Below are positions 320 through 36,919 of a DNA stretch of 37,798 nucleotides, piece by piece. The notes under the pieces are model-generated. The model ran no database searches. It was not told the DNA's origin and saw only the letters and a list, made by a program, of their open reading frames with translations. The stretch spans positions 1 through 37,798 of IMG/VR virus record IMGVR_UViG_3300042934_000712; one strand, given 5' to 3'. Position 1 is the first letter of the stretch. Every line of letters begins with the position of its first letter. The stretch comes from a virus. The position numbers and the translations under genes are program-made.

Positions 320-748
320 ATGGCCGGAATGGATGGCTTCGGAGTCCAGCTTCAGCGCGGCGACGGCGCGGGCACCGAGGTGTTCACGAAGATCGCGGAC
401 GTCACGTCGCTGAACCCTCCCGGGCTCACGCGGGAGACGATCGACGTCACCTCCCACGACAGCGAGAACGGGTGGATGGAGTTCCTCGGCGGGCTCAAGG
501 ACCCGGGCGAGGTGTCCGCGGACATCAACTACCAGCCCTCGGAGCACGACCTGCTGGTGGCGGACTTCGACGACAAGACCCCCCGCAACTACAAGATCGT
601 GTTCCCGGACGACGACGTCGCCCCCACCACCTGGTCCTTCAAGGCGTTCATCACCGGCTTCGAGCCGGAGACGCCCTACGACGACAAGGCGTCCGCGTCC
701 CTGACCTTCAAGGTCACGGGCAAGCCCACCATCGGCGCGGGGGCGTGA
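320..748 (+). CDS. Major tail protein
   Basis: RBS acAGGAGaagccc precedes the ATG. The product is 142 aa with high GC3. The position is canonical, between the tail terminator and the G/GT chaperones. Confidence 0.75.
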   Translation: MAGMDGFGVQLQRGDGAGTEVFTKIADVTSLNPPGLTRETIDVTSHDSENGWMEFLGGLKDPGEVSADINYQPSEHDLLVADFDDKTPRNYKIVFPDDDVAPTTWSFKAFITGFEPETPYDDKASASLTFKVTGKPTIGAGA

Positions 749-752
749 TCGC

Positions 753-1154
753 GTGGCACTGCTGAGCAAGGACCAGATCGCCGCTGCGGACGACCGCACG
801 TGGGAGGACGTGGACGTGCCCGAGTGGGGCGGCACCGTCCGTCTCCTGGGCATGTCCGGCACCGAACGCAACGCCTACCAGGCGAGTCTGGTCGTGATGG
901 GCACCAACGGTCAGGCGCAGCGCCTGAACATGGCCGACCAGCTAGCGAAGCTGGTGGCGAAGTGCCTGGTCGACGAGGACTTCGAGCGGCTGTTCACCGA
1001 CAGGGAAGTCCGGGAGCTGGGGGCGAAGAACGGCGCTGTCCTGGAACGTCTCGGCCAGGTCGCGCAGCGTCTGTCCGGCCTCCGCAAGGAGGACGTGGAG
1101 GACGCCGAGGGAAAATCCGAGCCGACCCCGAACGACGCTTCTACTTCCGGCTAG
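753..1154 (+). CDS. Tail assembly chaperone (G-like, zero-frame product)
   Basis: 133-aa acidic protein directly upstream of the tape measure gene. It contains the slippery heptamer near its 3' end. Confidence 0.75.
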   Translation: MALLSKDQIAAADDRTWEDVDVPEWGGTVRLLGMSGTERNAYQASLVVMGTNGQAQRLNMADQLAKLVAKCLVDEDFERLFTDREVRELGAKNGAVLERLGQVAQRLSGLRKEDVEDAEGKSEPTPNDASTSG

Positions 1155-1483
1155 CCCTGGAGAAGCGGCTGTCCCTGGCCGAGCTGCTGCGCACGCACAC
1201 CTCGGCCGAGCTGACCGAGTGGATGGCCTACGAGCGGGTCACCGGCATTTTCGGCCCGGAGCGGCAGGACATCCTGCACGGCATCCAGACCGCCGTCATC
1301 GCCAACGCCAACCGCGCCAAGAACAGCCGCAAGGCCGAGCCGAAGGACTTCATCCCCACCTGGGACCAGGGCAAGCGCGGGCCGATGACCTGGCAGGACA
1401 TGCTCGCCGCGGCCAAGGCCTACAACCGCCGGATCAACGGCACCGACCACACGACCAAGGGAGGTGCCCGTGGCGACGCTTGA
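753..1483 (+). CDS. Tail assembly chaperone, -1 frameshift fusion product (GT-like; 753-1115 joined to 1115-1483)
   Basis: The -1 frame is open from the slippery site to TGA at 1481-1483. Its extension reads GKIRADPERRFYFRLALEKRLSLAELL... and ends just inside the tape measure start. Confidence 0.7.
1109..1115 (+). promoter_or_regulatory. -1 programmed ribosomal frameshift slippery heptamer G GGA AAA
   Basis: GGGAAAA lies in X XXY YYZ phase with the 753 frame (codons GGA 1110-1112 and AAA 1113-1115). Confidence 0.7.
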
Positions 1484-3431
1484 GGAACTGCTGGTCTCCA
1501 TCGGCATCAACACCGACGACCTGACGGCCGGCGCCGACGGGGCCGCGGACCAGGTGGAGTCGAGCCTGGGCGGCATCCAGACTGCCGCCGCGGGCGCCGC
1601 TGTCGGCGGCATGTTCATGGCCGGGCTCAACGCGGCGATGGACTTGCAGAACGTGGAGACCCGCCTCCAGAACCAGCTCGGTCTGACCGAGGAGGAGGCG
1701 GGCCGCGCAGGTGACGCGGCCGGGCGGGTGTACGCGGCCGGGTGGGGCGAGTCCATGCAGGAGGTCGGCGACTCTCTCGCGGCCGTGGCGCAAGCCATGG
1801 GCGGCGTGGGAGACCTGTCCGACTCCGAGATGGACGACCTCACCAAAAAGGCCATGATGCTGGCCGAGACGTTCGAGCTGGACGTCGCCGAGTCCGCGAA
1901 CGCCGCCGGGCAGATGATCAAACTGGGCATGGCCAAGGACGGCCAGGAAGCCTTCGACATCCTCACCGCGGCCGCGCAGGAGCTGCCCGCGGCGATGCGC
2001 GACGACATCCCCGCCGTCATCTCCGAGTACGGCAAGCACTTCGAGCGGATGGGCCTCGACGGCAAAGAGGCCTTCGGGATGCTGTCGCAGTACGTGCAGG
2101 CCGGCGGCCGCGACATCGACCAGGCCGCCGACGTCATCCACGAGTTCGCCCGCATCACCTCCGAGGACACCAAGGGCGCATCCGAAGCCTTCAAGGCCCT
2201 CGGTCTGGACTCGGGCCAGATGCTGTCGGACATCGGCAAGGGCGGCGACGACGCCCAGCAGGCCCTGGGTGCCACCCTGACAGCACTGCGCGGGGTGAAG
2301 GACCCGGCCAAGCAGGCCGCCCTCGGTGTCGCCCTGTTCGGCGACATGGCGGGCGAGGGCAACGACGCTCTGTGGGCGATGAACCCGGCGACCGCCGCCG
2401 CCGCGGGCGGCATGGACAACGTGGCCGGCGCCGCCGGCCGGGCCACCGCCTCCGCTGAGGCGTCGAAGTCGATCGACGCGATCTGGCGGACGATGGCTGT
2501 CACGCTGGGCGAGATGCTCCAGCCTGCGCTGGAGTTCCTAGCGGATTTCATGCAGAAGAACCCGGAGCTGGTGAAGCTGCTGGCCGGGGCGCTGCTGGCG
2601 CTGGGCGTGGCGATCGGCCTGGCCGTGATCGCTCAGTGGGCGTGGAACGCGTCGCTGTGGGCGTTCCCCGGCACGTGGATCATCGCTGGGATCCTCGCCC
2701 TGATCGTGATCGTGTTCCTGATCGTCGCCTACTGGGACGAGATCAAGGCCGCCACCGGCGCGGCCTGGGACTGGATCAAGGGCAAGCTGTCGGGCGTCTG
2801 GAACTGGATCAAGTCGGTCGTCTCGTCGACCTGGGACTGGGTGTCGTCGCGGACGTCGGAAGCTTGGTCGTGGATCCGGGGCAAGGTCGCCGCCGGAGTC
2901 TCCGCTGTTCAGAGCGTCATCGACACCCTGCGGTCCATCCCGGGGAAGGTCGCCGGATTCTTCGGCAAGATCGTCTCCTATGTGGCCGGGCTGCCGGGCC
3001 GGATCTCCAGCGCGGCGTCGGGCATGTGGAACGGCCTGCTGTCCGGCTTCAAAGGCGTCATCAACCAGATCATCGGCGGCTGGAACAACATGTCGTTCAC
3101 CATCGGTGGCGGCAGCTTCATGGGCGTCGACATCCCGTCGGTCACCCTGTCCACCCCGAACATCCCGTACCTGGCACAGGGCGGTGTCACGACCGGCCCG
3201 ACCTTCGCGATGATCGGTGAAGGCCGCGAGCAGGAAGCCGTCCTCCCGCTGTCGAAGCTGGACGGCATGCTGCGCTCCGTCGCCGGGGCAGTCCGCGGCA
3301 CGAGCGGCAGCCAGGACGTGAACCTGCGCGTAGAGGTCGCCGGGCCCCGCGAATTCAAGACCCTCATCCGCAGCGTGGTCGCCACCGGCAGCCGCGGCGG
3401 CGACGTTCAGGGCTTCTTCGGTACCGACTAG
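1470..3431 (+). CDS. Tape measure protein
   Basis: About 654 aa. SD aaGGGAGG at 1457-1464 precedes GTG at 1470 (alternative GTG at 1464). It has an Ala/Gly-rich helical N-terminal part, central TM segments, 11-aa Trp repeats, and a C-terminal NIPYLAQGG...AMIGEGREQEAVLPL motif typical of tape measure proteins. Confidence 0.9.
   Translation: MATLEELLVSIGINTDDLTAGADGAADQVESSLGGIQTAAAGAAVGGMFMAGLNAAMDLQNVETRLQNQLGLTEEEAGRAGDAAGRVYAAGWGESMQEVGDSLAAVAQAMGGVGDLSDSEMDDLTKKAMMLAETFELDVAESANAAGQMIKLGMAKDGQEAFDILTAAAQELPAAMRDDIPAVISEYGKHFERMGLDGKEAFGMLSQYVQAGGRDIDQAADVIHEFARITSEDTKGASEAFKALGLDSGQMLSDIGKGGDDAQQALGATLTALRGVKDPAKQAALGVALFGDMAGEGNDALWAMNPATAAAAGGMDNVAGAAGRATASAEASKSIDAIWRTMAVTLGEMLQPALEFLADFMQKNPELVKLLAGALLALGVAIGLAVIAQWAWNASLWAFPGTWIIAGILALIVIVFLIVAYWDEIKAATGAAWDWIKGKLSGVWNWIKSVVSSTWDWVSSRTSEAWSWIRGKVAAGVSAVQSVIDTLRSIPGKVAGFFGKIVSYVAGLPGRISSAASGMWNGLLSGFKGVINQIIGGWNNMSFTIGGGSFMGVDIPSVTLSTPNIPYLAQGGVTTGPTFAMIGEGREQEAVLPLSKLDGMLRSVAGAVRGTSGSQDVNLRVEVAGPREFKTLIRSVVATGSRGGDVQGFFGTD
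2766..2897 (+). repeat. Four tandem 33-nt (11-aa) W-x-W repeats inside the tape measure gene
   Basis: TGGGACTGG, TGGAACTGG, TGGGACTGG and TGGTCGTGG start at 2766, 2799, 2832 and 2865. The protein reads AWDWIKGKLSG VWNWIKSVVSS TWDWVSSRTSE AWSWIRGKVAA. Confidence 0.85.
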
Positions 3432-3443
3432 GAGGGGGTCCCT

Positions 3444-6400
3444 GTGGAGTTCCCGCTGGACATGCTCACCGAGCTGCACATCGACGGTGTCTGGACGAAG
3501 GTCCCCACCTACGAGCGGGACCCGGTAGAGCTGGACTACGGGCGCCCGGAGCGGGGCACCAAGTCCGACCCGGGCAGCCTGTCCATCACGGTCAACAACC
3601 GGGACGGCAGGTTCAGCCCCCGCAATCCGATGTCCCCGTTCTTCGGGAAGATCGGCCGCAACACCAGGATCAGGCTGTCCCTGCCCGGCGAGGAGTCCTA
3701 CCTCCAGCTGGACGGCGACCCGGCGTCCTACGCCTCGACGCCGGACGCGGCCGCGCTCGACCTCACCATGGACATGGACCTGCGCTGGGAGGGCGAAACC
3801 GACTGGTACGCCACCGCCGGCCAGGTCCTCATCGGCAAGTGGTCGACCGAGCCGGGCCAGCGTTCCTACGCCATGCGCCTGGAACGCGGCCTGCTGTTCT
3901 TCCACGGCGGCCGCGACGGCACCTCCGGTCCCTTCCAGGGCTGGCCTCTGCCCGCGCTGCCCCGCCGGGCGGCGGTCCGGGTCACCCTCACCGGAGGTCT
4001 CACCGTCCGCCACTACTGGGCCGAGACGATGGACGGGCCGTGGACGCAGATCGGAACCGACATCGCCCTGCCCTCCCCGCTGACCACCGGTCTGTTCGTG
4101 GGTACGGCGCCGCTCCTGATCGCGCCGAGCCAGTACGACTCCGACCCGACCCGCCCGCCGGTGGCCGGCCGTGTCTACCGGGCCGAGGTCCGCGGCGCCG
4201 GCGGCGCCGTGGTGGCCTCGCCCGACTTCCGGGGCCAGGCGGCCGGTGCGGCCGGGTTCACCGATGCGGCAGGCCGGGCCTGGACGCTGACGGGCACGGC
4301 TGAGATCCGTGACCGGACCGATCTGTTCCTCGGTGAGGTGTCCGAGTGGCCGCAGCAGTGGACGCCGGACGGCGCCGACGCCTGGGTGCCGCTGGTGGCG
4401 TCGGGCATCCTGCGCCGCCTGGGCCAGGGCAAGAAGGCCATCCAGTCCAGCCTCCGGCGCAGGATCCCCGCATTCTCGCCGATGGCGTACTGGCCGATGG
4501 AGGAAGGCGACCAGGCGACCAAGGCGTACTCGCCGGTGCCCGGCGTGGACCCGCTGTCGTTCAGTCAGGCGGACTGGGCTGCCGACACGTCGCTGGTGTC
4601 GTCGGCTCCGCTGCCGACGGTCGGCTCGCAGTCCGGGAACCTGTCGCACCTGTCCGGCATGGTCCGCAACTACTCGTGGGCGAGCCTGCCGTCCTGGTCC
4701 GCGATCTGGATGTACCGGATGCCGCAGACTCCCGCGGCCAGACAGACGTTCATGCTGGTGCGCAGCACGGGCACGGTCCGCGACTGGTACCTCCAGTTCG
4801 GCCCGGCCGACTCCCGCATCCTCGGCCTCGACCGCGAGGGCGTCACGGTCGTGGACCGCACCATCGCCACGAGCACCGACATCTTCGGCAAGTGGATCAA
4901 GGCCCGGTTCGCTGTCGAGCAGCAGGGCAGCAACGTCCGCTACGTCATGGTCTGGTCCGACATCGACGGCGACGCGGGCTTCTACGAGAACACCGTGGCG
5001 GGCGTCACCGGCCGGCCGACCGGTGTCTTCTCCCCGCCCGGCGGCTACTCCGCGAACCTCCAGGGCCTGGCCATCGGCCACATCTCGGTGTGGGACAGCT
5101 TCGACCCCGACGGCTACGACAACGCCATCAACGGCTGGTCCGGAGAGACGGCGTGGGAGCGGATGCGGCGCCTGTCGGACGAGGAGGGCCTGACGCTCTC
5201 CACCATCCCCGCCAACCAGGATCCGGAACTGGTCGGATCGCAGACCACCGAAACGCTGCTGACGCTTCTCCAGGAGGCCGCGGACGCCGACGGCGGTCTG
5301 CTGCTGGAGGACCGGCGCCGTCTCGGCCTGGTGTTCCGCCAGCGGGCCAGCATGTACAGCCAGACCCCGCGCCTGGTCCTGTCCTACGACCAGGCGCCGG
5401 GCCTGGCCGCACCCCTGGAACCGGTCGACGACGACACCGCCATCCGCAACGACCGCACGGTCCAGCGGGACGGCGGCGGGCAGGCGCGGGCGGTCCTTGA
5501 GGAAGGCCCGCTGTCGGTGCAGGACCCGCCCGACGGGATCGGCCGGTACGACGACAGCGTCACCCTGTCGCTCCACAGCGACGACCAGACGGCACCGATC
5601 GCGTACTGGCGGCTGGCTCTGGGCACGGTCGACGGGCCCCGCTACCCCACCGTCAAGATCCTGCTGCACAAGGCGCCCCACCTCATCCCGCAAATCATGG
5701 CGCTGACCGAGGGCGACCTGGTCCGCATCACCGACCTGCCGGCCTACGTCGGCTTCGGCGACGCCGACCTGATCGTGGACGGCGTGCACCACGAAATGCG
5801 GATGATGCAGTGGACCGTGACGCTGAACTGCCAGCCTGCCGAACCGTGGCAGGCCGGCATCGCCGACGACGCGGTCCTCGGCAAGGTCGACACCGACGGC
5901 TCCCAGCTGGCGGCCGCGGCTGACGCCACTGCCACCGTGCTGCCAGTGAACGTCACCGCGGGCCCGTGGTGGATCTCGGGCGGCACCGTCCTCAACGCCA
6001 ACCCCCTGCTCACGAACGACCTGACCGGGTGGACCCCGTTCGGGACCGTCCTGGAGCGGGTGGAGGCGCCCACACCGAAGCCGTTCCCCGGCACGTGGTG
6101 CATGCGCCTCACTCCGAACGGAGTCGAGCAGTACCCGAACGCGGGCTCCGGCCAGATCCCGGTCACGCCTGGCCAGCAGTACACGCTGTCCGGGTGGCTG
6201 CGCTGCGCCACGGCCCGCTCGGTCGCCCTCAACCTGAACTGGTTCGACGCCACCGCCGGCTACCTGTCGACGGCGGCGAACGACAAGCCCGTCCTCGCCG
6301 GGGCGTGGACCTGGTTCGAGATGACCGTCACGGCACCCGCGGGGGCGGCCGCCGCGAACATCGCTCCCACCGTCGCGGACTTCCCTCCGGCCACCGATGT

Positions 6401-7226
6401 GCTGTGGGCCCACCAGCTCACACTGCGCCCGCAGGCGGACGGGGCGAAGCTCGCCGACTTCCCCTTCGACGTCCGCGCGGGCGGGGAGGTGATGACCGTC
6501 AACGCGGTCACGCCGACCGTCCTGGACCGCTTCACGCGGACCGTGACGGGCGGCTGGGGGGCGACCGAGACGGGCCAGGCCTGGACGGCGACCGGCGGGA
6601 CGGCCGCCAACTTCGAAGTCGGGGGAGGCGTCGCGCAGCACACCATCAGCACGAAGAACGTCTACCGGGTCACCTCGCTGAACACGCTGGCCCTCCCGGA
6701 CGCGGACCTGATGGTGTCCGTGCGGCTGCCCTCCACCCCGACCGGGGACGGCATCTACACGTACTACCTGGCCCGCGCCAACGTCGCCGCCGACACGTTC
6801 TACTTCGCCCGCCTGTACTTCCAGACCAACGGGTGGGTGGAACTGACCCTCCGCAAGCGGACACCGACGGAGACGGCTCTGGCGACGTCTCCGGTCCAGC
6901 TGGCGTTCGTGGCGGGCAAGTCCTACCGGCTGCGGTTCCAGGTCCTCGGCAGCACGCTCCGCGCGAAGGCGTGGGCCCTGCCGGACATCGAACCCGCGGA
7001 CTGGCACGTGACGGCCACCGACACCAGCATCACGGCCGCGGGCGCGGTCGGGTTGCGGACCTACGCGTCCACGTCGAACACGAACACCTCGCCGCTGGTG
7101 GTGTTCGACGACCTGAAGGTCGGCCCGCAGCGCTTCGGTGTGACCCGGTCCGTCAACGGCGTCGTCAAAGCCCAGAGCGCCGCCACGGAAGTGCGGATGG
7201 CCAACCCGATGCGCATACCCCTGTAG
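3444..7226 (+). CDS. Large minor tail protein (Dit-like N-terminus fused to LamG-like and carbohydrate-binding-like domains; probable adsorption device)
   Basis: RBS ctAGGAGGgggtccct precedes the GTG. The product is 1260 aa and follows the tape measure gene directly. The N-terminal ~90 aa resemble siphovirus distal tail proteins. The 6000-6360 region (NPLLTNDLTGWTPFG...QYTLSGWLR...WFEMTVTAP) resembles CBM4_9-type jelly-roll modules. Confidence 0.7.
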   Translation: MEFPLDMLTELHIDGVWTKVPTYERDPVELDYGRPERGTKSDPGSLSITVNNRDGRFSPRNPMSPFFGKIGRNTRIRLSLPGEESYLQLDGDPASYASTPDAAALDLTMDMDLRWEGETDWYATAGQVLIGKWSTEPGQRSYAMRLERGLLFFHGGRDGTSGPFQGWPLPALPRRAAVRVTLTGGLTVRHYWAETMDGPWTQIGTDIALPSPLTTGLFVGTAPLLIAPSQYDSDPTRPPVAGRVYRAEVRGAGGAVVASPDFRGQAAGAAGFTDAAGRAWTLTGTAEIRDRTDLFLGEVSEWPQQWTPDGADAWVPLVASGILRRLGQGKKAIQSSLRRRIPAFSPMAYWPMEEGDQATKAYSPVPGVDPLSFSQADWAADTSLVSSAPLPTVGSQSGNLSHLSGMVRNYSWASLPSWSAIWMYRMPQTPAARQTFMLVRSTGTVRDWYLQFGPADSRILGLDREGVTVVDRTIATSTDIFGKWIKARFAVEQQGSNVRYVMVWSDIDGDAGFYENTVAGVTGRPTGVFSPPGGYSANLQGLAIGHISVWDSFDPDGYDNAINGWSGETAWERMRRLSDEEGLTLSTIPANQDPELVGSQTTETLLTLLQEAADADGGLLLEDRRRLGLVFRQRASMYSQTPRLVLSYDQAPGLAAPLEPVDDDTAIRNDRTVQRDGGGQARAVLEEGPLSVQDPPDGIGRYDDSVTLSLHSDDQTAPIAYWRLALGTVDGPRYPTVKILLHKAPHLIPQIMALTEGDLVRITDLPAYVGFGDADLIVDGVHHEMRMMQWTVTLNCQPAEPWQAGIADDAVLGKVDTDGSQLAAAADATATVLPVNVTAGPWWISGGTVLNANPLLTNDLTGWTPFGTVLERVEAPTPKPFPGTWCMRLTPNGVEQYPNAGSGQIPVTPGQQYTLSGWLRCATARSVALNLNWFDATAGYLSTAANDKPVLAGAWTWFEMTVTAPAGAAAANIAPTVADFPPATDVLWAHQLTLRPQADGAKLADFPFDVRAGGEVMTVNAVTPTVLDRFTRTVTGGWGATETGQAWTATGGTAANFEVGGGVAQHTISTKNVYRVTSLNTLALPDADLMVSVRLPSTPTGDGIYTYYLARANVAADTFYFARLYFQTNGWVELTLRKRTPTETALATSPVQLAFVAGKSYRLRFQVLGSTLRAKAWALPDIEPADWHVTATDTSITAAGAVGLRTYASTSNTNTSPLVVFDDLKVGPQRFGVTRSVNGVVKAQSAATEVRMANPMRIPL

Positions 7227-7235
7227 GAGGATCCC

Positions 7236-7733
7236 GTGCCTTATGAGCCGTGGCAGCCAGGCATGACGGTGACGGCCGGCCGTCTGGCGCTGATCTCGCC
7301 GACGTGGCAGGACTGGACCCCGGTGTGGACGACGTCGGGCGCGTCGACCCCCAACTTCGGGAACGCGTCGATCACCGCGCGGTGGGCGCAGTCCGCGCTC
7401 ACCATCCACTACCAGGTCGATGTCGTGTTCGGGTCTACGACGACTTTCGGGTCGGGCACGGACAACTGGCGCATGTCGACACCCGTGGCCGCCGCGTCGA
7501 CCTCCAACGGCTGCGGGTCGGGCGAGATCCAGAACACGACCGCCGCGAGCTCTCGGCAGCCGATCCGCGTGAGGCTGACGACCGTGTCCACGTTCGAGTT
7601 CGAGATGTGCGGCGGCAACATCGCCGCTACGTCGACCAGCTCGGGCGCAGGCCTCATCGACGCGGCGACACCGGGCACGTGGGTGTCGGGGTCGTCGCTG
7701 CGTTTCTGGGGGTCCTACGAGGCCGCTCCGTGA
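7236..7733 (+). CDS. Minor tail protein (small beta-rich, Ser/Thr/Gly-rich)
   Basis: RBS tAGGAGGAtccc precedes the GTG. The product is 165 aa and sits directly downstream of the large tail protein. Confidence 0.5.
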   Translation: MPYEPWQPGMTVTAGRLALISPTWQDWTPVWTTSGASTPNFGNASITARWAQSALTIHYQVDVVFGSTTTFGSGTDNWRMSTPVAAASTSNGCGSGEIQNTTAASSRQPIRVRLTTVSTFEFEMCGGNIAATSTSSGAGLIDAATPGTWVSGSSLRFWGSYEAAP

Positions 7734-7775
7734 CCCTGGCCCTTCCCGCCAATCCGTACCCGGCAGGAGGCTGTG

Positions 7776-8084
7776 GTGAGTGAACTGTTCGGCATCAATC
7801 CCCTGGACGCAGGCGCGGCAGGGCTGCTGTGCCTGGCGGTGGTGATGATCCTGTCCGGCCGACTGGTACCGCGCAGCTACCTGGAGGATGCGCGGGCCGA
7901 CCGGGACTACTGGCGGGCCGCCCACACGGCGGAGGTCGCCGCCCGGCAGGAGGAACGGTCCCTGACCAACGAACTCCTCGAGGTCGCTCACACCGCCGAC
8001 CGTGTCCTGCACGCCCTGCCCCGGACCGGGGCCAGCCCGGAGGAGGTGACCGCCGGAAATGCGGTGGATCAGGCTCCCCGGTAG
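7776..8084 (+). CDS. Small membrane protein, holin-like (1 TM)
   Basis: SD AGGAGG at 7765-7770. GTG at 7776 (or 7773). One TM segment (AAGLLCLAVVMILSG) is followed by a charged helical tail. It is in the position of a lysis cassette. Confidence 0.5.
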   Translation: MSELFGINPLDAGAAGLLCLAVVMILSGRLVPRSYLEDARADRDYWRAAHTAEVAARQEERSLTNELLEVAHTADRVLHALPRTGASPEEVTAGNAVDQAPR

Positions 8085-8103
8085 GCGGCGCAAGGAACGA
8101 CAG

Positions 8104-8286
8104 ATGGTCCAGCGCGAGGCAGCCCAGCAGGCCCTCGCCGAAGCCCGTGAGGCACAGCGGGAGATCAGAGAGGAACGCCGGCCGATGGTGCTGGCGATCG
8201 TCCACCGGCTGCGGGTGGCGCGTGAAGAGAACCATTTCCAGGAGCGGATCGAGGCCGCTTACGCCGCGCGCAGAGGAGCCGTGTGA
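8104..8286 (+). CDS. Small charged coiled-coil protein (hypothetical)
   Basis: ATG at 8104 with aagga 7 nt upstream (the ORF is open from 8059). The product is 60 aa and Arg/Glu-rich. Its end overlaps the next gene. Confidence 0.45.
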   Translation: MVQREAAQQALAEAREAQREIREERRPMVLAIVHRLRVAREENHFQERIEAAYAARRGAV

Positions 8287-8612
8287 TGAACGATCTGGGC
8301 ATCGACCAGTGGGTGAACGTGGCTGCGTCGATGCTGGCCTTCGCGGCCTGCGCGGTGTTCGCGTCGGCCTACCACCTGCGGGCCACGTGGTGGCGGACCG
8401 AGGTCGGACGGAACCTCATGGGCTTCGCCGGCGCGGTCGGGCTGCTGTGCCTGTACACGGTGCTGGTGACGGTGTGGCCGGACGGCTGCTTCGCCATCGT
8501 GGCCCGCGGGGTGCGCACGGCTCTGCTGGTTGCCATCGCCCTGCTGATGTTCCAGCGCACCCGCCTGTTCATCCAGGCACAGCGGGAACACCAGCATCGA
8601 ACTGGAGTGTGA
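8283..8612 (+). CDS. Membrane protein with 3 predicted TM segments (holin-like)
   Basis: 109 aa with three hydrophobic stretches. Its start overlaps the preceding stop. It is the last gene of the + strand late block. Confidence 0.55.
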   Translation: MMNDLGIDQWVNVAASMLAFAACAVFASAYHLRATWWRTEVGRNLMGFAGAVGLLCLYTVLVTVWPDGCFAIVARGVRTALLVAIALLMFQRTRLFIQAQREHQHRTGV

Positions 8613-8665: not shown

Positions 8666-9166
8666 CTACTCCGGCAGCTGGTTGCGGGTGTGGGCCCACA
8701 CGCCCTTCGTGGTGGTGTTCACCTGCCGCTGGTCCACGGTGCCGTTGTAGTGGTGGTGGTGGACGTCCGGCAGGGCAGCCTTGGCGCGCTTCGCCAGGCG
8801 GGACAGGGCGAAGATCGGGACGGCGAGCCCGACGGGCACGGCACCCATCATCGCGATCACGGTGGGGTCGGCCTGCCCGGAGAAGTACAGGACGCTGGAG
8901 ACGGCACCGCCCGTGCACAGGGTGAGGAATCCCGCGGAGAGCATGCGGACGCTGTCGTCGGTGGCTTTCTGCGACATGGGCGGCCGCCCTGGCTGGGGGA
9001 CCGGCAGCGCGTCGCCGATCGCGGGGACGGGGGAGTCGTCGCGGTACTGGGTCTGGCGGATCGCATCGCGCACGGCGGCCTCAAGAACGGAGTCGGTGAG
9101 GCTTTGGGCGGGGGCCTGCCCGGCCGTGGCGGCGGCGGGCTGGGTCGGGTCGGGCAGGGAATTCAC
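8666..9166 (-). CDS. Membrane protein, Spd-like position (2 TM, HHHH tract)
   Basis: The ORF is open to 9175. GTG at 9166 has AGGAG 8 nt upstream, whereas the 9175 GTG abuts the SD. Hydrophobic segments are MLSAGFLTLCTGGAVSSVLYF and VIAMMGAVPVGLAVPIFAL. Confidence 0.55.
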   Translation of the reverse strand: MNSLPDPTQPAAATAGQAPAQSLTDSVLEAAVRDAIRQTQYRDDSPVPAIGDALPVPQPGRPPMSQKATDDSVRMLSAGFLTLCTGGAVSSVLYFSGQADPTVIAMMGAVPVGLAVPIFALSRLAKRAKAALPDVHHHHYNGTVDQRQVNTTTKGVWAHTRNQLPE

Positions 9167-9204
9167 GGCGGTCACTCCTAGCCAGGATCGTTACGTTGCG
9201 TGAG

Positions 9205-9335
9205 TGTCAGGAGGGGGAGACCTGACTAGTCAGGGGGTGTCAAAACGCGATGTCAGGGCCGAAGTCAGGTGACTTTCCTTAGGGCCCCCGCCCGGCCTGA
9301 CAGTCAGGAGTCAGGCCGGGCCGTAACAGTCAGAC
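9205..9335. repeat. GTCAGG repeat array (clt-like / operator-like) downstream of the TraB-like gene
   Basis: GTCAGG occurs at 9206, 9229, 9252, 9264, 9303 and 9310. The inverted form CCTGAC occurs at 9221 and 9296. Degenerate copies GTCAAA (9239) and GTCAGA (9329) are also present. All lie within a 178-nt intergenic region. Confidence 0.7.
9291..9320 (-). terminator. Perfect 11-bp stem-loop built from two of the repeats
   Basis: CCCGGCCTGAC (9291-9301) pairs with GTCAGGCCGGG (9310-9320), with an 8-nt loop. It lies 34 nt downstream of the traB-like stop. Confidence 0.5.
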
Positions 9336-9353
9336 CGTCACAGACGGTGACTG

Positions 9354-11438
9354 CTATGCGGGCATCAGCGGCGAGTGGACGATGCTGTACTCGCCGTGTC
9401 CGTCCTTGCGGAGGACGCCCTCGTCGACCAGGCGGGCCAGCTCTCCCTGCATCCAGGCCCGCTTACGGCCGGCGGCCACGAAGACCGGGGTCAGGTCCGC
9501 GGGGGAGAAGGTCAGCTGGTTGCTCTCCGCCCACTGGTGGATCTGCTCGGCAACCATCTGCCGTGCCTCCGGGGTGGGCAGCTTCTCCCGCTGCTCGAAG
9601 ACCATCCCGGCGTCGGTGTCCTCGGGCATGTCGCCGTCCAGGTCGATGTCCGCGTAGTCGGCGTCCGGCTCCGGGTCGGCGGGGATCAGGGACATGACCT
9701 CGGCGTAGGCGTCTTCGATCTCCACCTGGATGCTCTCTTCCTGGTCGTCGGTCAGGTCCACGACGGGGCCCGCCTCGGGCAGCTCCTGGCGGACGCGGGG
9801 CGGCGGGGGCAGCTCGCTGACGTCGGTGTTCAGCCGGTTCGTGCCCCGGTGCTTGCGCTGGGCGTACACCAGACCGAGGGCCTTCGCGGTGGTGTCGTCC
9901 AGCGGGTCACGGAACGGCGTACCGGCCGTGACCAGGTCGGACAGGTACTGCCGGTCCGTGAGACCGGAGCGCCATTCCATCGTCCAGCGGTCCTCGGGGA
10001 TACCCATGCCGGTTGCGAAGGCGTAGCCGGGCCGGTCGGATCCCCAGGCGGGGACGGCGCCGGCGTCGGTGACGCGGTCGGGCAGGCAGAACCCGGCGTC
10101 CCCGGCGTCGTCCACGCCGAAGCAGGCACTGGCCTGGAGGTTCGCGCGGACGTCGGTGCTGACGTTGGTCCAGGTGGCGCGCTGAAGGCTGATGACCAGC
10201 CAGATTCCCACCGACCGGGCGGCCCGTGCGATCTTGTCCAGCTCGTCGAAGTCGGCGACGTCGGCGGCTTCCTCGACCCACAGGCACACCGCGTTCAGCG
10301 ACGACTTGCTGGTCCACTGGTCCAGGCCCTCGTCGGCGAGGACGTCACCGCGGGCCTTGATGGCGGCGGGCAGCGCCTTCATCAGCTGCTTCGCCTCCCG
10401 CATGTCGCTGATGAAGACGTCCAGGCCGTGCTTGATGTGGCCGACGGACTGCCGTCCCTTGGAGCAGTCGACCAGCATCACGGTCATCTGGCGGCGGGTC
10501 ATCAGGTGGGCGAGCAGGCCGCGGGCGAACTCGGACTTGCCCGCTCCGGTGACACCCATGACCAGCAGGTGCTGGAGGATGACCGCGTCGAACGGGTTGA
10601 TGACGAACTCCTCGCCGTCCGCGTACAGACCCAGCGGCAGCGGCTCGTCGGGCAGCATGCCGAGACGGACGGGCGGGATGAACTGCACGCCGTCTTTCAG
10701 CAGGTCAGCGACACGGATGGCCATCTCGGCGAGGGCGGCGTTGTCCGGGTCGCCCTTCACGGTGGCGCCTGACGGAGGCACGTGCATCGCCGACGTCAGC
10801 TTCGGCATGGCCTGCTGGACGTCCTCGACGGTCTGCCCGGCGGGCAGCTCGACGGGGACCTTCACCATGCCCTTGCCGTTGCCCTTGGCCGCCTTGACCT
10901 TGAGCTTCTCCAGACCGATGGCCTCGGCGATCTTCGCGAACCCGCCCTTGTCCTCGACCTGCTCGGTCTCGTCGTGGGCGTTGCGCATGACCTGCCGCAG
11001 GTTCCAGGAGGCAGCGAAGACCCCGCCGCCCAGCAGCCACAAGTCCATCATCGGGTGACCGAACGGGCCGGCGGCGGTCGCGCAGGTCAGCCAGCCCATG
11101 CCCGCGGCGACGGACGCGGTGGCCTGCGCCCGGCGGAAGCGGCGGAACTTGTTGTTGCCGCCCGCAACCTGCCAGGTCACCGCGGCGAGAGCGACACCGC
11201 TGACTCCGATCCCGGCGGACGCGAGCCCGGCGGACAGGGCCTCGTCGCCCCACATCTGGTTCGTCGCGAACCCGGCCAGCGGGGGCAGCGTCGCCGCACC
11301 GAGCCACGGCCCGGTGTACGGGATGAGCTTGCCGACCAGGTGCGAGACGATGCCGCCCTTGCCGACCGGGACAACGTCCGTGGACGTGTTGACCTGCGAC
11401 GTCCGGCTGTTCGTGGTGGTGGTGACCTTGGCCATCAC
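9354..11438 (-). CDS. traB: FtsK/SpoIIIE-family DNA translocase, TraB-like (membrane-anchored, C-terminal winged-helix)
   Basis: 694 aa with about 4 N-terminal TM segments. Motifs are Walker A GVTGAGKSE, Walker B CLWVEEAADV, and GIWLVISLQRATW. The C-terminus (GELARLVDEGVLRKDGHGEYSIV) looks like a wHTH. The start (GTG 11438 or ATG 11435) overlaps the upstream stop. Confidence 0.85.
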   Translation of the reverse strand: MMAKVTTTTNSRTSQVNTSTDVVPVGKGGIVSHLVGKLIPYTGPWLGAATLPPLAGFATNQMWGDEALSAGLASAGIGVSGVALAAVTWQVAGGNNKFRRFRRAQATASVAAGMGWLTCATAAGPFGHPMMDLWLLGGGVFAASWNLRQVMRNAHDETEQVEDKGGFAKIAEAIGLEKLKVKAAKGNGKGMVKVPVELPAGQTVEDVQQAMPKLTSAMHVPPSGATVKGDPDNAALAEMAIRVADLLKDGVQFIPPVRLGMLPDEPLPLGLYADGEEFVINPFDAVILQHLLVMGVTGAGKSEFARGLLAHLMTRRQMTVMLVDCSKGRQSVGHIKHGLDVFISDMREAKQLMKALPAAIKARGDVLADEGLDQWTSKSSLNAVCLWVEEAADVADFDELDKIARAARSVGIWLVISLQRATWTNVSTDVRANLQASACFGVDDAGDAGFCLPDRVTDAGAVPAWGSDRPGYAFATGMGIPEDRWTMEWRSGLTDRQYLSDLVTAGTPFRDPLDDTTAKALGLVYAQRKHRGTNRLNTDVSELPPPPRVRQELPEAGPVVDLTDDQEESIQVEIEDAYAEVMSLIPADPEPDADYADIDLDGDMPEDTDAGMVFEQREKLPTPEARQMVAEQIHQWAESNQLTFSPADLTPVFVAAGRKRAWMQGELARLVDEGVLRKDGHGEYSIVHSPLMPA

Positions 11439-12103
11439 GCGTCTCCGATCGTGAACTCACGGCGGGCGGTCTTCCCGCTGCGCTTCCGCTGGGCTTCCTG
11501 CTCGGGCTTGATGAAGTGCCGGTCGAAGGCGTGCGCCATCTTCAGGGCGCCGACTCCGAGGGCCTTGGCCGCCTCCGCGGACACCTTCAGGTGCATGGAC
11601 ACCAGGCGGGCCTTGACCCGGCTGGACGCGCCGAACGTGTACCAGCGGCCCTTGTACGTGGACAGCACGCCGTTGATCTCCTCGGCGCGCATGCTGATGA
11701 TGAAGTGCAGCTCGCGACCCAGCCGGTTCACGGCGGTGGCCAGGGCCAGGATGTCCTTCTCGGACTGGAACTCGATCCGCTCGATCGCGGCGATCATCCC
11801 GTCGCCCTTGTGGTTGCCACCCCCACCGGACGCGGCCTGACCTGCACCGTTACCGCCCTGCCCGCCGCGTCCGCCACCGTTGCCGCCGGCGTTGATGGTG
11901 ACGTTCGGGGTGAAGGAGCTGCCCAGCCCGCCGACGAAGCCACCCGCGGCCGCGCCCGCCGCACCCGCCGCGCGGGCGCCCCGGCCAGAGCCGTTGTTCG
12001 CGGGCTGCGGCGGCACGTTCGGCGGCGGCGGGGGAACCGGCCGGGTCTGCGTCATCCCGGAGTCGTTGTCGTCCGCCCAGTTGTACGGGTTGCTGCCGGC
12101 CAT
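11435..12103 (-). CDS. Hypothetical protein with a Pro/Gly-rich disordered N-terminal half, translationally coupled to traB-like
   Basis: 222 aa. It has PVPPPPPNVPPQP and GGNGGGRGGQGGNG tracts followed by a structured C-terminal ~110 aa. Confidence 0.6.
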   Translation of the reverse strand: MAGSNPYNWADDNDSGMTQTRPVPPPPPNVPPQPANNGSGRGARAAGAAGAAAGGFVGGLGSSFTPNVTINAGGNGGGRGGQGGNGAGQAASGGGGNHKGDGMIAAIERIEFQSEKDILALATAVNRLGRELHFIISMRAEEINGVLSTYKGRWYTFGASSRVKARLVSMHLKVSAEAAKALGVGALKMAHAFDRHFIKPEQEAQRKRSGKTARREFTIGDA

Positions 12104-14658: not shown

Positions 14659-14948
14659 CGGGCCTCCCCGTGCACCAGGTACAGGTTCGGCTTGCCAGAG
14701 GGGGCGGGCTCGGTCTGCCGGATCACGCCGGGGATGCCGCTGCGACGGGCGGCGTGCTTGGCCATCGCCCACACGTTGGTGACGTCGATGTCCACGTGGC
14801 CGAAGGTGTCTCCGTCGATGGCGGCCACGGTCAGGCGAAGGGTCCGGCCGCCGGGGTGCGGGTTGTTCGCGGCCATCTGATCGGCAGCGGTGATGAGCAT
14901 GCGAGCGGCCTGCTCGATCAGGGCATGGTCGATGTCGAAGCTGCTCAC
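14655..14948 (-). CDS. Hypothetical protein (97 aa)
   Basis: GTG at 14948 with GGAGG 7 nt upstream. GTGA overlap with the WhiB-fusion stop. The longer 399-aa ORF in this frame is an Arg/Pro-rich artefact. Confidence 0.5.
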   Translation of the reverse strand: MSSFDIDHALIEQAARMLITAADQMAANNPHPGGRTLRLTVAAIDGDTFGHVDIDVTNVWAMAKHAARRSGIPGVIRQTEPAPSGKPNLYLVHGEAR

Positions 14949-15874
14949 CGGTTCGCCTCCGTCTTCAGCACGCGGCGCTCGCGGGCGGTCAGACCGCCAG
15001 CCACGCCGTGCTGCTCCTTGTCGTTGGGCTTGAGCGCCATGTCCCTGCACGGTTCGAGGAACGGGCACTCGGCGCACAGCTCCTTGGCGACCTCGATCCG
15101 GCGGCGGGCCAGCCTCTGGTCCATCGCCCCGGCCTGGTCGTCGGCGTTGAAGAACAGGGCACCCAGGCCCTGGCAGGCGGGCTTGACGCCGTCGCCGCAC
15201 AGCTGGCCCTCGCGGGCGGCGAGCTGCACCGCGTGCACCGTGCTCACGTCGCTGAGGCTGTAGGCGTAGGTCTTGGTGTCGACCGGCCAGCGCGGCAGGT
15301 TGTGCAGCTTCACCCAGCGGGTCAGCGTCGACTCCGACACCGGCCGCCCCGACTGGTTGAAGAACTCGGTCAGGAAGCTGATCGGGCGGAGGTCCGCGGG
15401 GTAGCCCGTGGAACGCTGCACACCGCGCGGCGCGGCGGGCTTGGCGTAGCCGAGGTCGCGGTAGGTCCAGCGGCGGCGCAGCCCCGGGCGGGGAGCGCAG
15501 TGCCGGGAGACGCAGTGCGCGCGGCCCTTGACCGGCATGAGGGTGAAGCAGCCGCACGCGGGGCAGGCCCGGGTGCGTACCGTCTCGGTCTCCTCGGCCA
15601 GGTCCTCGGCCTCCATGACGAACGCGTCGCGGATGGCGACGGCCTCCATGCGGCCGAGCGGCGAGCCCTCGCGGGACAGGCGGTCGGCGCGGGCAACAAC
15701 CTCCCGGCCTTCCTGCTGCTTGTCGAGGACCTTGGTGTTCACGGGCGTCGTTCCCCCTGTCCGGGTGGCGGTGCGGTCTGCGGTCTGTAGGTCGGGCCGT
15801 CGGCTGGTGGATCCGGCGGTGGTCCAGTAGGTCTGTTCGAGAGCAGCGATCCACTGCTCAGGCGTTGCGGGCAT
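14945..15874 (-). CDS. WhiB-like domain fusion protein (N-terminal Zn-ribbon/HTH-like region plus C-terminal Wbl domain)
   Basis: 309 aa. The C-terminus has CGDGVKPAC...CAECPFLEPC (C-Xn-C-X2-C-X5-C) followed by GVAGGLTARERR, matching the Wbl Fe-S cluster and turn/basic motifs. The N-terminal part has CPACGC...C..HC. Confidence 0.6.
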   Translation of the reverse strand: MPATPEQWIAALEQTYWTTAGSTSRRPDLQTADRTATRTGGTTPVNTKVLDKQQEGREVVARADRLSREGSPLGRMEAVAIRDAFVMEAEDLAEETETVRTRACPACGCFTLMPVKGRAHCVSRHCAPRPGLRRRWTYRDLGYAKPAAPRGVQRSTGYPADLRPISFLTEFFNQSGRPVSESTLTRWVKLHNLPRWPVDTKTYAYSLSDVSTVHAVQLAAREGQLCGDGVKPACQGLGALFFNADDQAGAMDQRLARRRIEVAKELCAECPFLEPCRDMALKPNDKEQHGVAGGLTARERRVLKTEANR

Positions 15875-16358: not shown

Positions 16359-16504
16359 GCGGATCACTCCTGGTCAGATCAGGCTGTGGTTCGCCGGGTC
16401 CTTCGGGACTCCCAAGGGGTCCGGGTGTCTCACCACCTGGGCCCTTTGGCGTTCGAGCCGCCTCCGTTACCGACAACACCCATAGTGCACTAGCGCAGTG
16501 GGGG

Positions 16505-19070: not shown

Positions 19071-19155
19071 AGCTCAACCACCGCAGACATGCGAGCGGCG
19101 GCCTATCCCGTCAAGAACCGGCCGCCGTCTCGTGAGACCTCCCAAAGGAGTACCC

Positions 19156-20547
19156 ATGGACAGCATCGCAGATGAGCAGGCTTTCATCCCCGCCCAGGAC
19201 CACGGAGGCTGGGAAGAAGCCCAACGGAAAGCCGACGAACTGGAGGAAGCCGAGCAGTCCGTCCTGGGCGGCATGCTCCTCAGCAAGGACGCCATCGCTG
19301 ACGTCATCAGCACGCCTATGCAGGGGCGCGACTTCCACAAGACGGCGCACGAGACGATCTACCGTGCGGTCCTGGATGCCTACGCCAAGGGCGAGCCGGC
19401 CGACCCCGTCACCATGTCTGCGGAACTGACCAGGCGCGGCGAACTCGGCAAGGTCGGCGGTGCCGCGTACCTTCACACCCTCGTACAGATCGTTCCGACG
19501 GCCGTGAACGCGGCGTACTACGCAGAGATCGTCCATGAGCGTGCCGTGCTGCGCCGGCTCGTTACGGCCGGTGCCAGCATCGCCCGCTTGGGGCAGGCGG
19601 GCGAGGGCGAGCTGGACGATATCCGCAACGCAGCCGAGGCGGCGATGCTGGAAGCGCTGAAGGCCGACGACAAGACCAGCCAGTACGCCCCGATCGGCGA
19701 CGACGTCCCCGAGTTCTGGGACGACCTGGACGCCACGATGAAGGGCACAGGCAAGGCCAACGGGATCCTGACTGGGTTCACGGACTTCGACGCCCTGACA
19801 AACGGGCTCCACCCTGGGCAACTCATTGTCATTGGTGCCCGCCCGGCTATGGGTAAGTCCACCGTCGCCCTGGACATCGCCCGCCACGCCGCCATCGTTT
19901 ACGGCAAGACCACAGCGTTCTTCTCTCTCGAGATGAGCCGCAAGGAACTCGTCACGCGCACCTTCAGTGCAGAGGCCCGTGTCGCCCTGCACCACATCAA
20001 GGGCGGGTCAGTCACACCTGCCGACATGGAAAAGCTGGCTCAGAAGACCAACGTCATCCAGGCGGCGCCGCTCCTCATCGACGACACTCCCAACCTGACC
20101 ATGATGGAGATCCGGTCCCGCGCCCGCAGGATCGCCCAGCAGCGGGGCCTCGACCTGCTGATCATCGACTACCTCCAGCTGCTGAAGTCCGGGGCCAGCC
20201 GCCGGGAGGAGTCCCGGCAGGTCGAGGTCTCCGACATCTCCCGCAACCTGAAGCTGCTGGCCAAGGAGTTGGACATTCCCGTCATCGCCCTGTCGCAGCT
20301 CAACCGCGGACCGGAGCAGCGCGCTGAGAGGAAACCGCTGGTGTCTGACCTTCGTGAGTCTGGAGCGATTGAGCAGGACGCCGACCTGGTGATCCTCTTG
20401 CACCGGGAGGACGCCTACGAGAAGGAGTCCCCGCGGGCCGGCGAGGCCGACCTGATCGTGGCCAAGCACAGAGGCGGTCCCACCGCCACGATCACCTTGG
20501 CCTTCCAAGGCCACTTCTCGCGGTTCTCAGACATGAGCCAGATGTGA
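19156..20547 (+). CDS. dnaB: Replicative DNA helicase DnaB
   Basis: AAAGGAG precedes ATG at 19156. The N-terminal domain reads AEQSVLGGMLLSKDAIADV...HETIYRAV. Walker A is GARPAMGKST. Further motifs are LLIIDYLQL, ALSQLNR and ESGAIEQDADLVILLHR. Confidence 0.9.
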   Translation: MDSIADEQAFIPAQDHGGWEEAQRKADELEEAEQSVLGGMLLSKDAIADVISTPMQGRDFHKTAHETIYRAVLDAYAKGEPADPVTMSAELTRRGELGKVGGAAYLHTLVQIVPTAVNAAYYAEIVHERAVLRRLVTAGASIARLGQAGEGELDDIRNAAEAAMLEALKADDKTSQYAPIGDDVPEFWDDLDATMKGTGKANGILTGFTDFDALTNGLHPGQLIVIGARPAMGKSTVALDIARHAAIVYGKTTAFFSLEMSRKELVTRTFSAEARVALHHIKGGSVTPADMEKLAQKTNVIQAAPLLIDDTPNLTMMEIRSRARRIAQQRGLDLLIIDYLQLLKSGASRREESRQVEVSDISRNLKLLAKELDIPVIALSQLNRGPEQRAERKPLVSDLRESGAIEQDADLVILLHREDAYEKESPRAGEADLIVAKHRGGPTATITLAFQGHFSRFSDMSQM

Positions 20548-22201: not shown

Positions 22202-23143
22202 TCAGTCCTCCGTTCCCCCGTCACGGTCACGGCCCCGCGCCCGGTACGCCGTGCGGTTCGCGTACTGCCGAAGCTGGGACAGCAGCATCTCGGTACGGCC
22301 CGGGTCGTACACCTGCGCCAGGGCCACCACTCCGGCGAGCCGGTCATAGATCTGCTGCTGCTGCGCCAGCGCGGCCTCGAGGACGGCGACCGCCTCGGCA
22401 CCCGCCCGCGCGTCGTCCTTCAGCACGTCTTCGCCGGTCGGCGGCGCCACCTGTTCGGTGACCTGGACCTGCGGCGGCACGATCAGCGGCACCCGGCCCT
22501 CGGCGGCCGCGACCCGCAGGACGTCGGCGGCCTGCTCCGGGGCGGACAGCCGTTGCGGCAGCACCCTGCGGGCCTCCGCCAGGGCAGCGGCGGTCACCTT
22601 CCCACCGGCCAGCTCCCGGGACTCCCGGAAGAACACCGCGGCGGCCTCTTGGCCGTGGTCCTTGTAGACCGGCAGCAGCTCCCGCGCCTGCGCCTCGTTG
22701 ATGTCCCCAATTGGGGACACCGCTACGGCCACGGGCCATTCCTCGATCAGCCGGTACGCCTGAGACTTCCGGATCCCCCAGACCTCCCAGACGTAGTCCG
22801 CGAACGTCCCGTACTTCTCCCGGTACAGCCGGCCCCGGTTGATGACCTCCAGCGCCTTGCCCGCGATCACCAGCGCCTTGCGGAAGCCGTGCAGGGCCTG
22901 CTCGCACACCTCCAGGTCGGCCCGCTCCTTGTCCGAGAGCGGCGAGACGACCTCGGGGGCGACGTCGTAGGGCGTGGGCAGGCTGCTGACCGACGGGACC
23001 GCCGTCGTGTCCATCCCGACCATGCTGTGGACGACCCCGCGCGGCGGAGCTGAGGGTGGCGGTACGTCGACCAGCGTGTCCTGCTGGCCCGCGGCCGGCG
23101 CCTGGCTGCGGGTCGACGGCAGGTTCAGGGAGCGCCGGGTCAC
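22202..23143 (-). CDS. Partition partner protein (ParB-like role, HTH-containing), translationally coupled to parA
   Basis: GTG at 23143 forms a GTGA overlap with the parA stop, and GGAGG lies 7 nt upstream. The product is 313 aa with the HTH-like segment GIRKSQAYRLIEEWP. No canonical ParB box was seen, so the assignment rests on synteny. Confidence 0.45.
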   Translation of the reverse strand: MTRRSLNLPSTRSQAPAAGQQDTLVDVPPPSAPPRGVVHSMVGMDTTAVPSVSSLPTPYDVAPEVVSPLSDKERADLEVCEQALHGFRKALVIAGKALEVINRGRLYREKYGTFADYVWEVWGIRKSQAYRLIEEWPVAVAVSPIGDINEAQARELLPVYKDHGQEAAAVFFRESRELAGGKVTAAALAEARRVLPQRLSAPEQAADVLRVAAAEGRVPLIVPPQVQVTEQVAPPTGEDVLKDDARAGAEAVAVLEAALAQQQQIYDRLAGVVALAQVYDPGRTEMLLSQLRQYANRTAYRARGRDRDGGTED

Positions 23144-24075: not shown

Positions 24076-24211
24076 GCCAGCGAACCTAACCGCCCCTTGG
24101 GGTCCGGCAGCTAGACCCCGGGACAATCCAGCCGTCTGGGGGGTGTGGTAACGCTGCTCAGCCGCGGGGCAACCTTCACCCCGACGCACGGCAGTGACAG
24201 CATTTCGCCCC

Positions 24212-29235: not shown

Positions 29236-29394
29236 CGCACGGTCACGGGACCCAGGGGGGTGACCCCCGGCCGGCCAGGGGGAGAACAGCGCGGGGGAGG
29301 GCTCGACCTGGTCAGGCGGGTTCAGAGGTCCACCGGCCGTCACGCAAGGTGACGCTGATCGTGCTGCGCAACGCAGCGTGGAGGAGTGATCGAG

Positions 29395-31513: not shown

Positions 31514-31524
31514 AAGGGGGCCCG

Positions 31525-33983: not shown

Positions 33984-34032
33984 TACCCGCCCGCGCGCAA
34001 CGCGCAGGCCCGCACCCGCAACGGGAGTACTC

Positions 34033-34713: not shown

Positions 34714-34734
34714 CCCCCTTCAAGGAGAACTCTC

Positions 34735-35960: not shown

Positions 35961-35976
35961 CTGAGAGGGGGCTGCC

Positions 35977-36917: not shown

Positions 36918-36919
36918 CC

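Follow-up and report, generated by a model that had tools for sequence, protein, structure and literature searches.

The DNA analysed here, the virus record IMGVR_UViG_3300042934_000712 (37,798 nt, 69.7% G+C; this whole stretch is referred to below as the window), carries a gene for a TraB-like DNA translocase, and directly downstream of it a dense array of short repeats whose presence raises a simple question: what is the array for? An original prediction, made from the sequence alone, had proposed that it is a clt, the locus required in cis for the conjugative transfer of Streptomyces plasmids, at which the translocase would recognise its DNA through short TraB recognition sequences (TRS). 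We give this reading, as a predicted clt with a CTGAC core, a probability of about 0.72, on the grounds of homology, position, conservation and co-occurrence. The proposal has drawn support from the comparison described below, in that both the place and the core of the array are conserved in the clade of related TraB proteins, the position is that of the clt loci of plasmids pWTY27 and pJV1, and the array tracks the type of TraB that it accompanies. The two features in question are as follows.

9354-11438, minus strand: traB-like gene, encoding a 694-amino-acid FtsK/SpoIIIE-type double-stranded DNA translocase
9206-9351, minus strand: predicted clt array, about 13-14 TGAC-core elements, of which nine have exact CTGAC/GTCAG cores

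The repeats are where they had been said to be. All six plus-strand copies of GTCAGG (at 9206, 9229, 9252, 9264, 9303 and 9310) are present, as are the two inverted copies, which read CCTGAC on the plus strand (9221-9226 and 9296-9301), and the two degenerate copies are also real, that at 9239 reading GTCAAA and that at 9329 reading GTCAGA, the latter still with a CTGAC core. The count across the whole window that had been proposed as a check on enrichment gave eight CCTGAC in 9176-9353 against 0.18 expected (Poisson 2.3e-11), and nine CTGAC/GTCAG cores in the same interval, where the remainder of the window would predict 0.45 (Poisson 1.5e-9). The runner-up 178-bp span in the window has four cores, the maximum in any 178-bp span of 300 first-order Markov simulated genomes was six, and nowhere else in the 37.8-kb element is there such a cluster. 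Of the nine cores, seven lie in the traB sense, and further TGAC-core variants (GTCAC, GTGAC and TTGAC) raise the array to about 13-14 elements within 146 bp.

Some details of the original prediction required revision. While the stated spacings (23, 23 and 12 nt) hold, the helical phasing read into them was rejected, since 787 of 2000 random site sets match the periodicity power of the real one. Likewise the length of 178 nt given for the intergenic gap holds only if the downstream open reading frame (ORF) starts at its first GTG, the mechanical call at 9175; the second GTG, at 9166, is the likely start, with a ribosome-binding site (RBS) AGGAG at 9175-9179, 8 nt before it, and relatives are annotated at the equivalent codon, so that the gap becomes 187 nt.

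For the comparisons that follow we gathered relatives from plasmids, genomes, metagenomes and Logan contigs, giving a comparison set of 23 related loci and an alignment of 19 loci (individual loci are given L numbers where they must be told apart). The elements of the array, in the order in which they follow traB, are these.

9337-9351: palindrome GTCAC-N5-GTGAC, the first array element, 3 nt past the traB stop codon
9297-9307: palindrome CTGAC-A-GTCAG, covering the end of the hairpin 5' arm and most of its loop
9290-9321, minus strand: perfect G+C-rich 12-bp hairpin containing three CTGAC copies
9273-9288, minus strand: conserved block, in the traB sense GGGGGCCCTAAGGAAA, GGGGGCC(C)TAAAGGAAAG, between the hairpin and the distal repeats
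9248-9269, minus strand: two direct 10-nt repeats, CGAWGTCAGG on the plus strand, 12 nt apart
9222-9233: palindrome CTGAC-TA-GTCAG
9206-9211, minus strand: last, promoter-proximal copy, in the traB sense CCTGACAC, its TGA invariant in the 19 loci

The two palindromes of the form CTGAC-N1-2-GTCAG are the only ones in the window (0.11 expected). The GTCAC-N5-GTGAC palindrome has a single other match there, at 29339-29353, some 33 bp upstream of the small-terminase ORF, which could be chance (two matches against 0.16 expected) or could be a shared binding site.

In most of the relatives examined, over a range of 58-93% TraB identity, the hexamer repeated most often downstream of traB contains CTGAC. 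Across the 19 aligned loci the invariant columns coincide with TGAC/GTCA cores, including positions of both halves of the GTCAC-N5-GTGAC palindrome, and mean identity is 0.876 in the TGAC/GTCA columns as compared to 0.791 elsewhere, a difference not attained in any of 163 circular shifts. In comparison with the three most distant loci the identity is 0.73-0.77 in core columns and 0.56-0.62 elsewhere, and at the loci with 58-62% TraB identity the TGAC columns stand as conserved islands. The block at 9273-9288 is not a TGAC element; it forms invariant or near-invariant columns (72-90 of alignment A2) over the same 58-93% range. One locus (L020) has an inserted ORF of 59 amino acids behind traB, on the far side of which the array is still complete. 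In S. resistomycificus (L017) the array is rearranged and carries three CTGAC-N-GTCAG palindromes. This locus and that of Streptomyces sp. AHA2 (L004, on a 714-kb contig) are close traB-array relatives situated in large chromosomal contigs, and the clade therefore also exists as integrated elements.

Does the array belong to the translocase, or to the gene on its other side?

8666-9166, minus strand: downstream gene, about 166 amino acids, encoding a small spd-like protein with two predicted transmembrane segments

The product of this gene matches phrog_19266, a family without an assigned function; it has no Pfam or NCBIfam match, and no profile points to a DNA-binding domain in it. Its family is represented in 48 plasmids and in phage ZL12, in every case directly 3' of a gene for a translocase; six loci pair the family with translocases unrelated to the present one. 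In these six the gap holds only zero to two CTGAC cores, and the closest such homologue (L025, CP075612.1; 63% identity) has in its gap, at 1853-2083, a different repeat altogether, five to seven copies of CCCGGAC/GGACAG in both orientations. These are probably that plasmid's own clt, and we take them to resemble the TRS of plasmid pSVH1, a type of motif that presumably occurs in L025 and not in the window. It is for these reasons, the near absence of CTGAC cores beside other translocases and the different repeat of L025, that we state that the array follows the TraB type and not the downstream gene. At two loci (L026, 2897-3101, and L030, phage ZL12, 2933-3128) the gap after a translocase of the pZL12 type resembles an unannotated small ORF followed by a hairpin (CCCCCGGGTCGTACCCGGGGG). 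No repeat array was found in this gap, and the pZL12 clt, if there is one, would therefore lie elsewhere.

The second requirement of a clt is a translocase able to read it. The identification of the 9354-11438 product as TraB-like is borne out by NCBIfam plasmid_TraB (NF041214; 456 bits, E 1.9e-136, profile positions 2-634 of 639), by Pfam FtsK_SpoIIIE (38.7 bits against a cutoff of 24) and by a match in the Protein Data Bank (PDB) to the FtsK motor 2IUU (E 3e-4). The protein has hydrophobic segments at about residues 50-90 and 110-155 and a Walker A motif GVTGAGKS; with the winged helix-turn-helix (wHTH) predicted at its C-terminus it shows the TraB architecture of N-terminal membrane segment, FtsK/SpoIIIE P-loop motor and C-terminal wHTH. 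The last of these was also part of the original prediction, and it agrees with the AlphaFold2 model of the last 98 residues (48 homologues; predicted local distance difference test about 90 in the domain), in which helix 1, a short strand, helix 2, helix 3 and a beta-hairpin wing follow one another. The top Foldseek PDB matches of the domain are all wHTH, with target TM-scores up to 0.73, so at the level of the modelled fold a C-terminal wHTH is supported.

9381-9575, minus strand: C-terminal winged-helix domain of TraB, residues 622-686
9423-9461: putative recognition helix 3, residues 660-672, with G-R-K ahead of the helix

On the replicon there are thus a TraB-type translocase and, adjoining its gene, a single non-coding cluster of direct repeats with inverted repeats, in which the repeat is specific to the TraB type and changes with it. 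The putative recognition helix may bear on how this change comes about. It begins at Arg660 within G-R-K-R-A-W (window 9423-9470; coordinates checked by translation), and among 120 homologues its start is nearly always R-x-R/K. Where helix 3 opens with Arg or Lys (20 of 20 loci), CTGA is followed by C in 90-100% of copies; in the three loci where it opens with Met or Thr, namely the plasmids pFP3 and pFP4 and locus L024, the figure is only 27-38%. The helix in these three starts R-S-M or R-S-T instead of R-K-R (RSMA in pFP3 and pFP4), several of their copies read CTGAG, the repeats of pFP3 and pFP4 have drifted to CTGAG, CTGAT and CTGAA, and the palindrome has changed symmetrically in all three from CTGAC-t-GTCAG to CTGAG-a-CTCAG; loci far more diverged overall retain CTGAC. 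This covariation fits a direct reading of the repeats by the TraB helix. For all the drift of its repeats, pFP4 is reportedly still able to conjugate. Whether the pFP3/pFP4/L024 lineage is a natural re-tuning of TraB-DNA recognition, the start of helix 3 and the repeats changing in parallel, we put forward tentatively, as a possibility that we would not bet on. If it were so, it would point to a simple protein-DNA specificity code for Streptomyces conjugative translocases, and incompatible clt/TraB pairs could split otherwise similar phage-plasmids into separate mobilisation groups.

Several points weigh against the assignment of the array as a clt read by this TraB. The 456 bits of the NF041214 match fall below the equivalog cutoff of 800, and since the protein belongs to a divergent clade we therefore speak of it as TraB-like and not as an equivalog. 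The Foldseek E-values for the small domain are weak (at least 0.02); FtsK-gamma is not among the top 50 matches, where other wHTH families are found, and the domain gave no sequence match in the PDB. The covariation comes from a single lineage and represents one evolutionary event, and the TraB of pJV1 keeps the same Arg despite a different repeat, for which reason Arg660 as sole determinant of the fifth base was rejected. Characterised clt loci have repeats of 7-9 bp, whereas the CTGAC core measures only 5-6 bp. The intergenic region outside the cores is also fairly conserved (0.79), and part of the motif conservation is therefore due to shared ancestry. Lastly, throughout the clade the array is invariably followed by one and the same downstream gene, and because of this it may have some part in the regulation of that gene.

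If the array is nonetheless a clt, the mechanism would follow that proposed for TraB and the TRS of pSVH1. The winged-helix C-termini of a hexameric TraB would recognise the CTGAC-core elements as equivalents of the TRS, TraB would assemble at the array on the double-stranded element, and it would then pump the DNA into the neighbouring hypha with ATP hydrolysis as the energy source. Both the binding of the array by TraB and its requirement in cis for transfer are what we infer from sequence comparison. The region would be a composite one, in which a hairpin made from three of the repeats probably also terminates transcription of traB and in which the promoter-proximal end holds the RBS of the spd-like membrane-protein gene.

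The hairpin merits separate consideration. A perfect stem is present as the original prediction had it, although its size and position differ: it is a 12-bp stem with arms at 9290-9301 and 9310-9321 and an 8-nt loop, not an 11-bp one at 9291-9320. A 76-nt RNA around it folds with -39.3 kcal/mol (z -3.4). RNAalifold on a MAFFT alignment recovered only a 5-bp tip helix with no covariation, as indels displace the left arm, and was replaced by folding each sequence separately on both strands; by this approach a strong hairpin is kept in 19 of 19 relatives and is more stable as traB-sense RNA in 15 of 19. In L019 the stem is held only via two G.U pairs (-33.1 kcal/mol in the sense orientation vs -18.3 antisense), and in L021 and L022 complementary changes occur in both arms. 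The structure is a stable G+C-rich hairpin directly 3' of a gene, as expected of an intrinsic terminator; a terminator scan found no U-tract after it, the stem being followed by GGGGGCCCUAAGG. Hairpin terminators that lack a U-tract are common in actinomycetes. The hairpin is probably such a terminator of traB, built from and embedded in the array, its activity being suggested by structure and position. This role is compatible with clt function, because characterised clt loci also contain inverted repeats (PMC3583192).

The alternative that survives best, though we judge it unlikely, holds that the region serves transcriptional punctuation and control only: the hairpin would terminate traB, and the repeats and palindromes would be operators or -35-like elements for a non-TraB regulator of the downstream membrane-protein gene, for instance a GntR/TraR-like protein or a phage helix-turn-helix protein. 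The fixed position of the array between traB and the same gene, beside which it stays even in L020, is in keeping with this, as are the conservation of the hairpin and its greater stability as sense RNA; CTGACA is similar to a -35 hexamer, yet a scan of the array region found no sigma-70-like promoter. The two perfect CTGAC-N-GTCAG palindromes would suit a dimeric regulator, but the copies are mostly direct, with seven of nine in one orientation, and the palindromes occur nowhere else in the genome, unlike the operators of phage and plasmid repressors. Nor does the tie to the downstream gene hold throughout, as a small ORF lies between it and the array in L011 and L022 and the family of that gene adjoins unrelated translocases where there is no array. 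With regard to the candidate regulators, TraR-type repressors act in pSVH1 at the divergent promoter region (PMC4447253) that corresponds to 16368-16497 in the window. This GntR promoter region lacks a CTGAC cluster, and the GntR regulator was for that reason rejected as an unlikely binder of the array.

Of two further alternatives, one turns on what kind of element this is. The window looks like a complete, circularly permuted phage-plasmid, since tail genes lie at one end and head genes at the other, and is akin to the Streptomyces plasmids pFP3 and pFP4. It encodes a tail tube protein, an assembly chaperone, a tape-measure-type protein and a holin, together with a small terminase, a VG15-type head protein and a scaffold protein. 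The conjugation module, on the minus strand and of Streptomyces type, comprises genes for a WhiB-domain protein, a DUF2637 (SpdB2-like) protein, a TraA-like protein and the TraB-like protein, with a GntR/UTRA regulator opposite.

320-7226: tail genes
8283-8612: holin
11435-12103, minus strand: TraA-like gene that overlaps the traB start (NCBIfam plasmid_TraA at 42.9 bits, under the cutoff of 80)
19132-20547: DnaB, within a DnaB/replication region at about 17.7-20.5 kb
23140-24219: ParA
25184-26284: tyrosine integrase
29386-37510: terminase and head genes
29386-29877: small-terminase ORF

Orthologues of the TraA-like protein in relatives match PF28214 TraA-like. The WhiB-domain protein of the conjugation module (309 amino acids; 14945-15874, minus strand) has that domain at its C-terminus only (residues 233-303) and is conserved in pFP3 and pFP4. 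An ORF of 1851 amino acids at 2538-8093 on the minus strand is a high-G+C shadow ORF, antisense to a real 1260-amino-acid tail gene at 3444-7226 on the plus strand; its G+C content at third codon positions is not that of a gene. The backbone of about 8.6-25 kb has some 80% DNA identity to pFP3 and pFP4, with which the gene order around traB is shared, and the structural module has no DNA-level match to these plasmids; with the backbone alone matching, the structural module is therefore a different one and the element is mosaic. A megablast search with 7-14 kb of the window against a phage collection gave no matches, and neither did a scan of IMG/VR. Rfam found no family, and a tRNA search found none.

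Given such an element, the array might consist of replication-origin iterons, or be a phage site (pac/cos or attP), that by chance lies where the conjugation module meets the lysis module. We regard this as very improbable. The region is indeed non-coding, rich in repeats and placed at the boundary of a module, the element does encode DnaB, ParA, an integrase and a terminase, and the GTCAC-N5-GTGAC palindrome does recur just upstream of the small-terminase gene. However, the array is far from the replication region, from the integrase (25.2 kb) and from the terminase (29.4 kb), no tRNA or att-like context was found, and in L019, L021 and L022 the array accompanies traB among neighbours that are, within the fetched stretch, plasmid-type (DUF2637, ParB) and not phage. 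Plasmids of the pFP type, moreover, are reported to have rep-plus-iteron loci beside their rep genes (PMC3583192). The last alternative, a functionless cluster from local duplication, slippage or chance, is effectively refuted by the conservation analysis: slippage can create short repeats and the pair of 10-nt units spaced 12 nt apart has the look of a local duplication, but the Poisson probabilities are 1e-9 to 1e-11, the count observed was not attained in any simulated genome, conservation across 58-93% TraB identity favours the cores, and several copies have shifted in concert from CTGAC to CTGAG in the pFP3/pFP4/L024 lineage.

If the array is a clt, its recognition would locate the probable transfer origin for a whole clade of Streptomyces phage-plasmids, plasmids and integrated elements, in none of whose records examined is a clt annotated. 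A clt on a complete phage genome would further open the possibility that such a genome needs no virions to spread through the mycelium or from strain to strain. About 150 bp of DNA, about 100 amino acids of protein and a natural pair of variants would together make a compact system for the study of how FtsK-like conjugative motors choose their DNA, and Streptomyces vectors could be given the 150-bp fragment as a cassette for their mobilisation when used with the cognate traB. CTGAC would then be a fourth repeat type among the TraB recognition motifs characterised or inferred so far, tied to the footprinted repeats of pWTY27. Most likely the array is what a known conjugation system would be expected to contain, here with a repeat sequence particular to it, and no new kind of mechanism is called for.

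How closely, then, does the array resemble the systems already known? With the chromosomal motors FtsK and SpoIIIE, which recognise the motifs KOPS and SRS respectively, the predicted reading shares the C-terminal winged helix of an FtsK-family motor and short oriented DNA motifs; KOPS and SRS are, in contrast, 8-mers dispersed and skewed over the chromosome, where they guide direction, whereas the window has a single dense cluster that is proposed to be a loading site. The proposed mechanism itself is taken from pSVH1, whose TRS reportedly differs in sequence and is an 8-mer, GACCCGGA. The TraB of pSVH1 (Reuther 2006; Vogelmann 2011, as summarised in PMC3583192, PMC4170104 and PMC4447253) is a hexameric FtsK-like protein that reads its repeats with helix 3 of a C-terminal wHTH and translocates double-stranded DNA, and the literature describes the short repeats of clt regions as recognised by the cognate TraB through this helix (PMC4447253, PMC3583192). 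Among elements of mixed character, pFP4, pFP3 and pZL12 (Chen et al. 2012; Zhong et al. 2010) resemble the window in that a traB/spd conjugation module of Streptomyces type is joined to genes for phage structure and lysis, and pFP4 is described as a Streptomyces "plasmid-phage" capable both of conjugation and of particle formation (Chen et al. 2012, as cited in PMC4170104). In pZL12, unlike in the window, the translocase is a distant one and the corresponding gap holds no CTGAC array.

The clt of pJV1 is close in its layout. It is described as consisting of nine CCGCACA repeats (Servin-Gonzalez 1996; Franco et al. 2003, as cited in PMC3583192), and in its sequence we find the nine repeats immediately 3' of traB and zero CTGAC. 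Like the window, it has nine short direct repeats together with inverted repeats 3' of traB, the same in copy number and position, and a TraA-like gene upstream of traB; it differs in the repeat itself (CCGCACA[C/G][C/G], with no CTGAC), in being a rolling-circle plasmid and in a TraB identity of about 31%.

Another close counterpart is pWTY27. Its clt spans 16 bp of the transfer gene and 159 bp downstream, with four TGACACC repeats that are needed (Wang et al. 2012, PMC3583192), and its translocase, named TraA there, gives a specific shift in electrophoretic mobility shift assays and protects two stretches from DNase I, while deletions cut transfer 10- to 1000-fold (PMC3583192). When we mapped these footprints onto the sequence, both were found to cover TGAC/GTCA cores straddling the traB stop, and two of the repeats read CCTGACACC. 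In pWTY27 (L023, 4355-4521) a gene some 0.8 kb downstream of the clt bears the RefSeq annotation 'phage major capsid protein' and is either a capsid-like relic or a mis-annotation. There are clear differences from the window: the TraB identity is about 29%, the 7-mer TGACACC forms the repeat and occurs along with another, CCCGCCC, the clt includes 16 bp of coding sequence whereas no copy lies inside traB in the window, and a 14-kb plasmid with binding shown by assay stands against a 37.8-kb phage-plasmid whose array is known from sequence alone. The likenesses are as follows. In both, the region lies at and after the 3' end of an FtsK-like transfer gene and holds multiple TGAC-core repeats, inverted GTCA copies and an inverted repeat, with the same orientation bias, and helix 3 starts R-x-W in both translocases. 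The array shares its position, copy number and architecture with the known clt loci, and its core with pWTY27.

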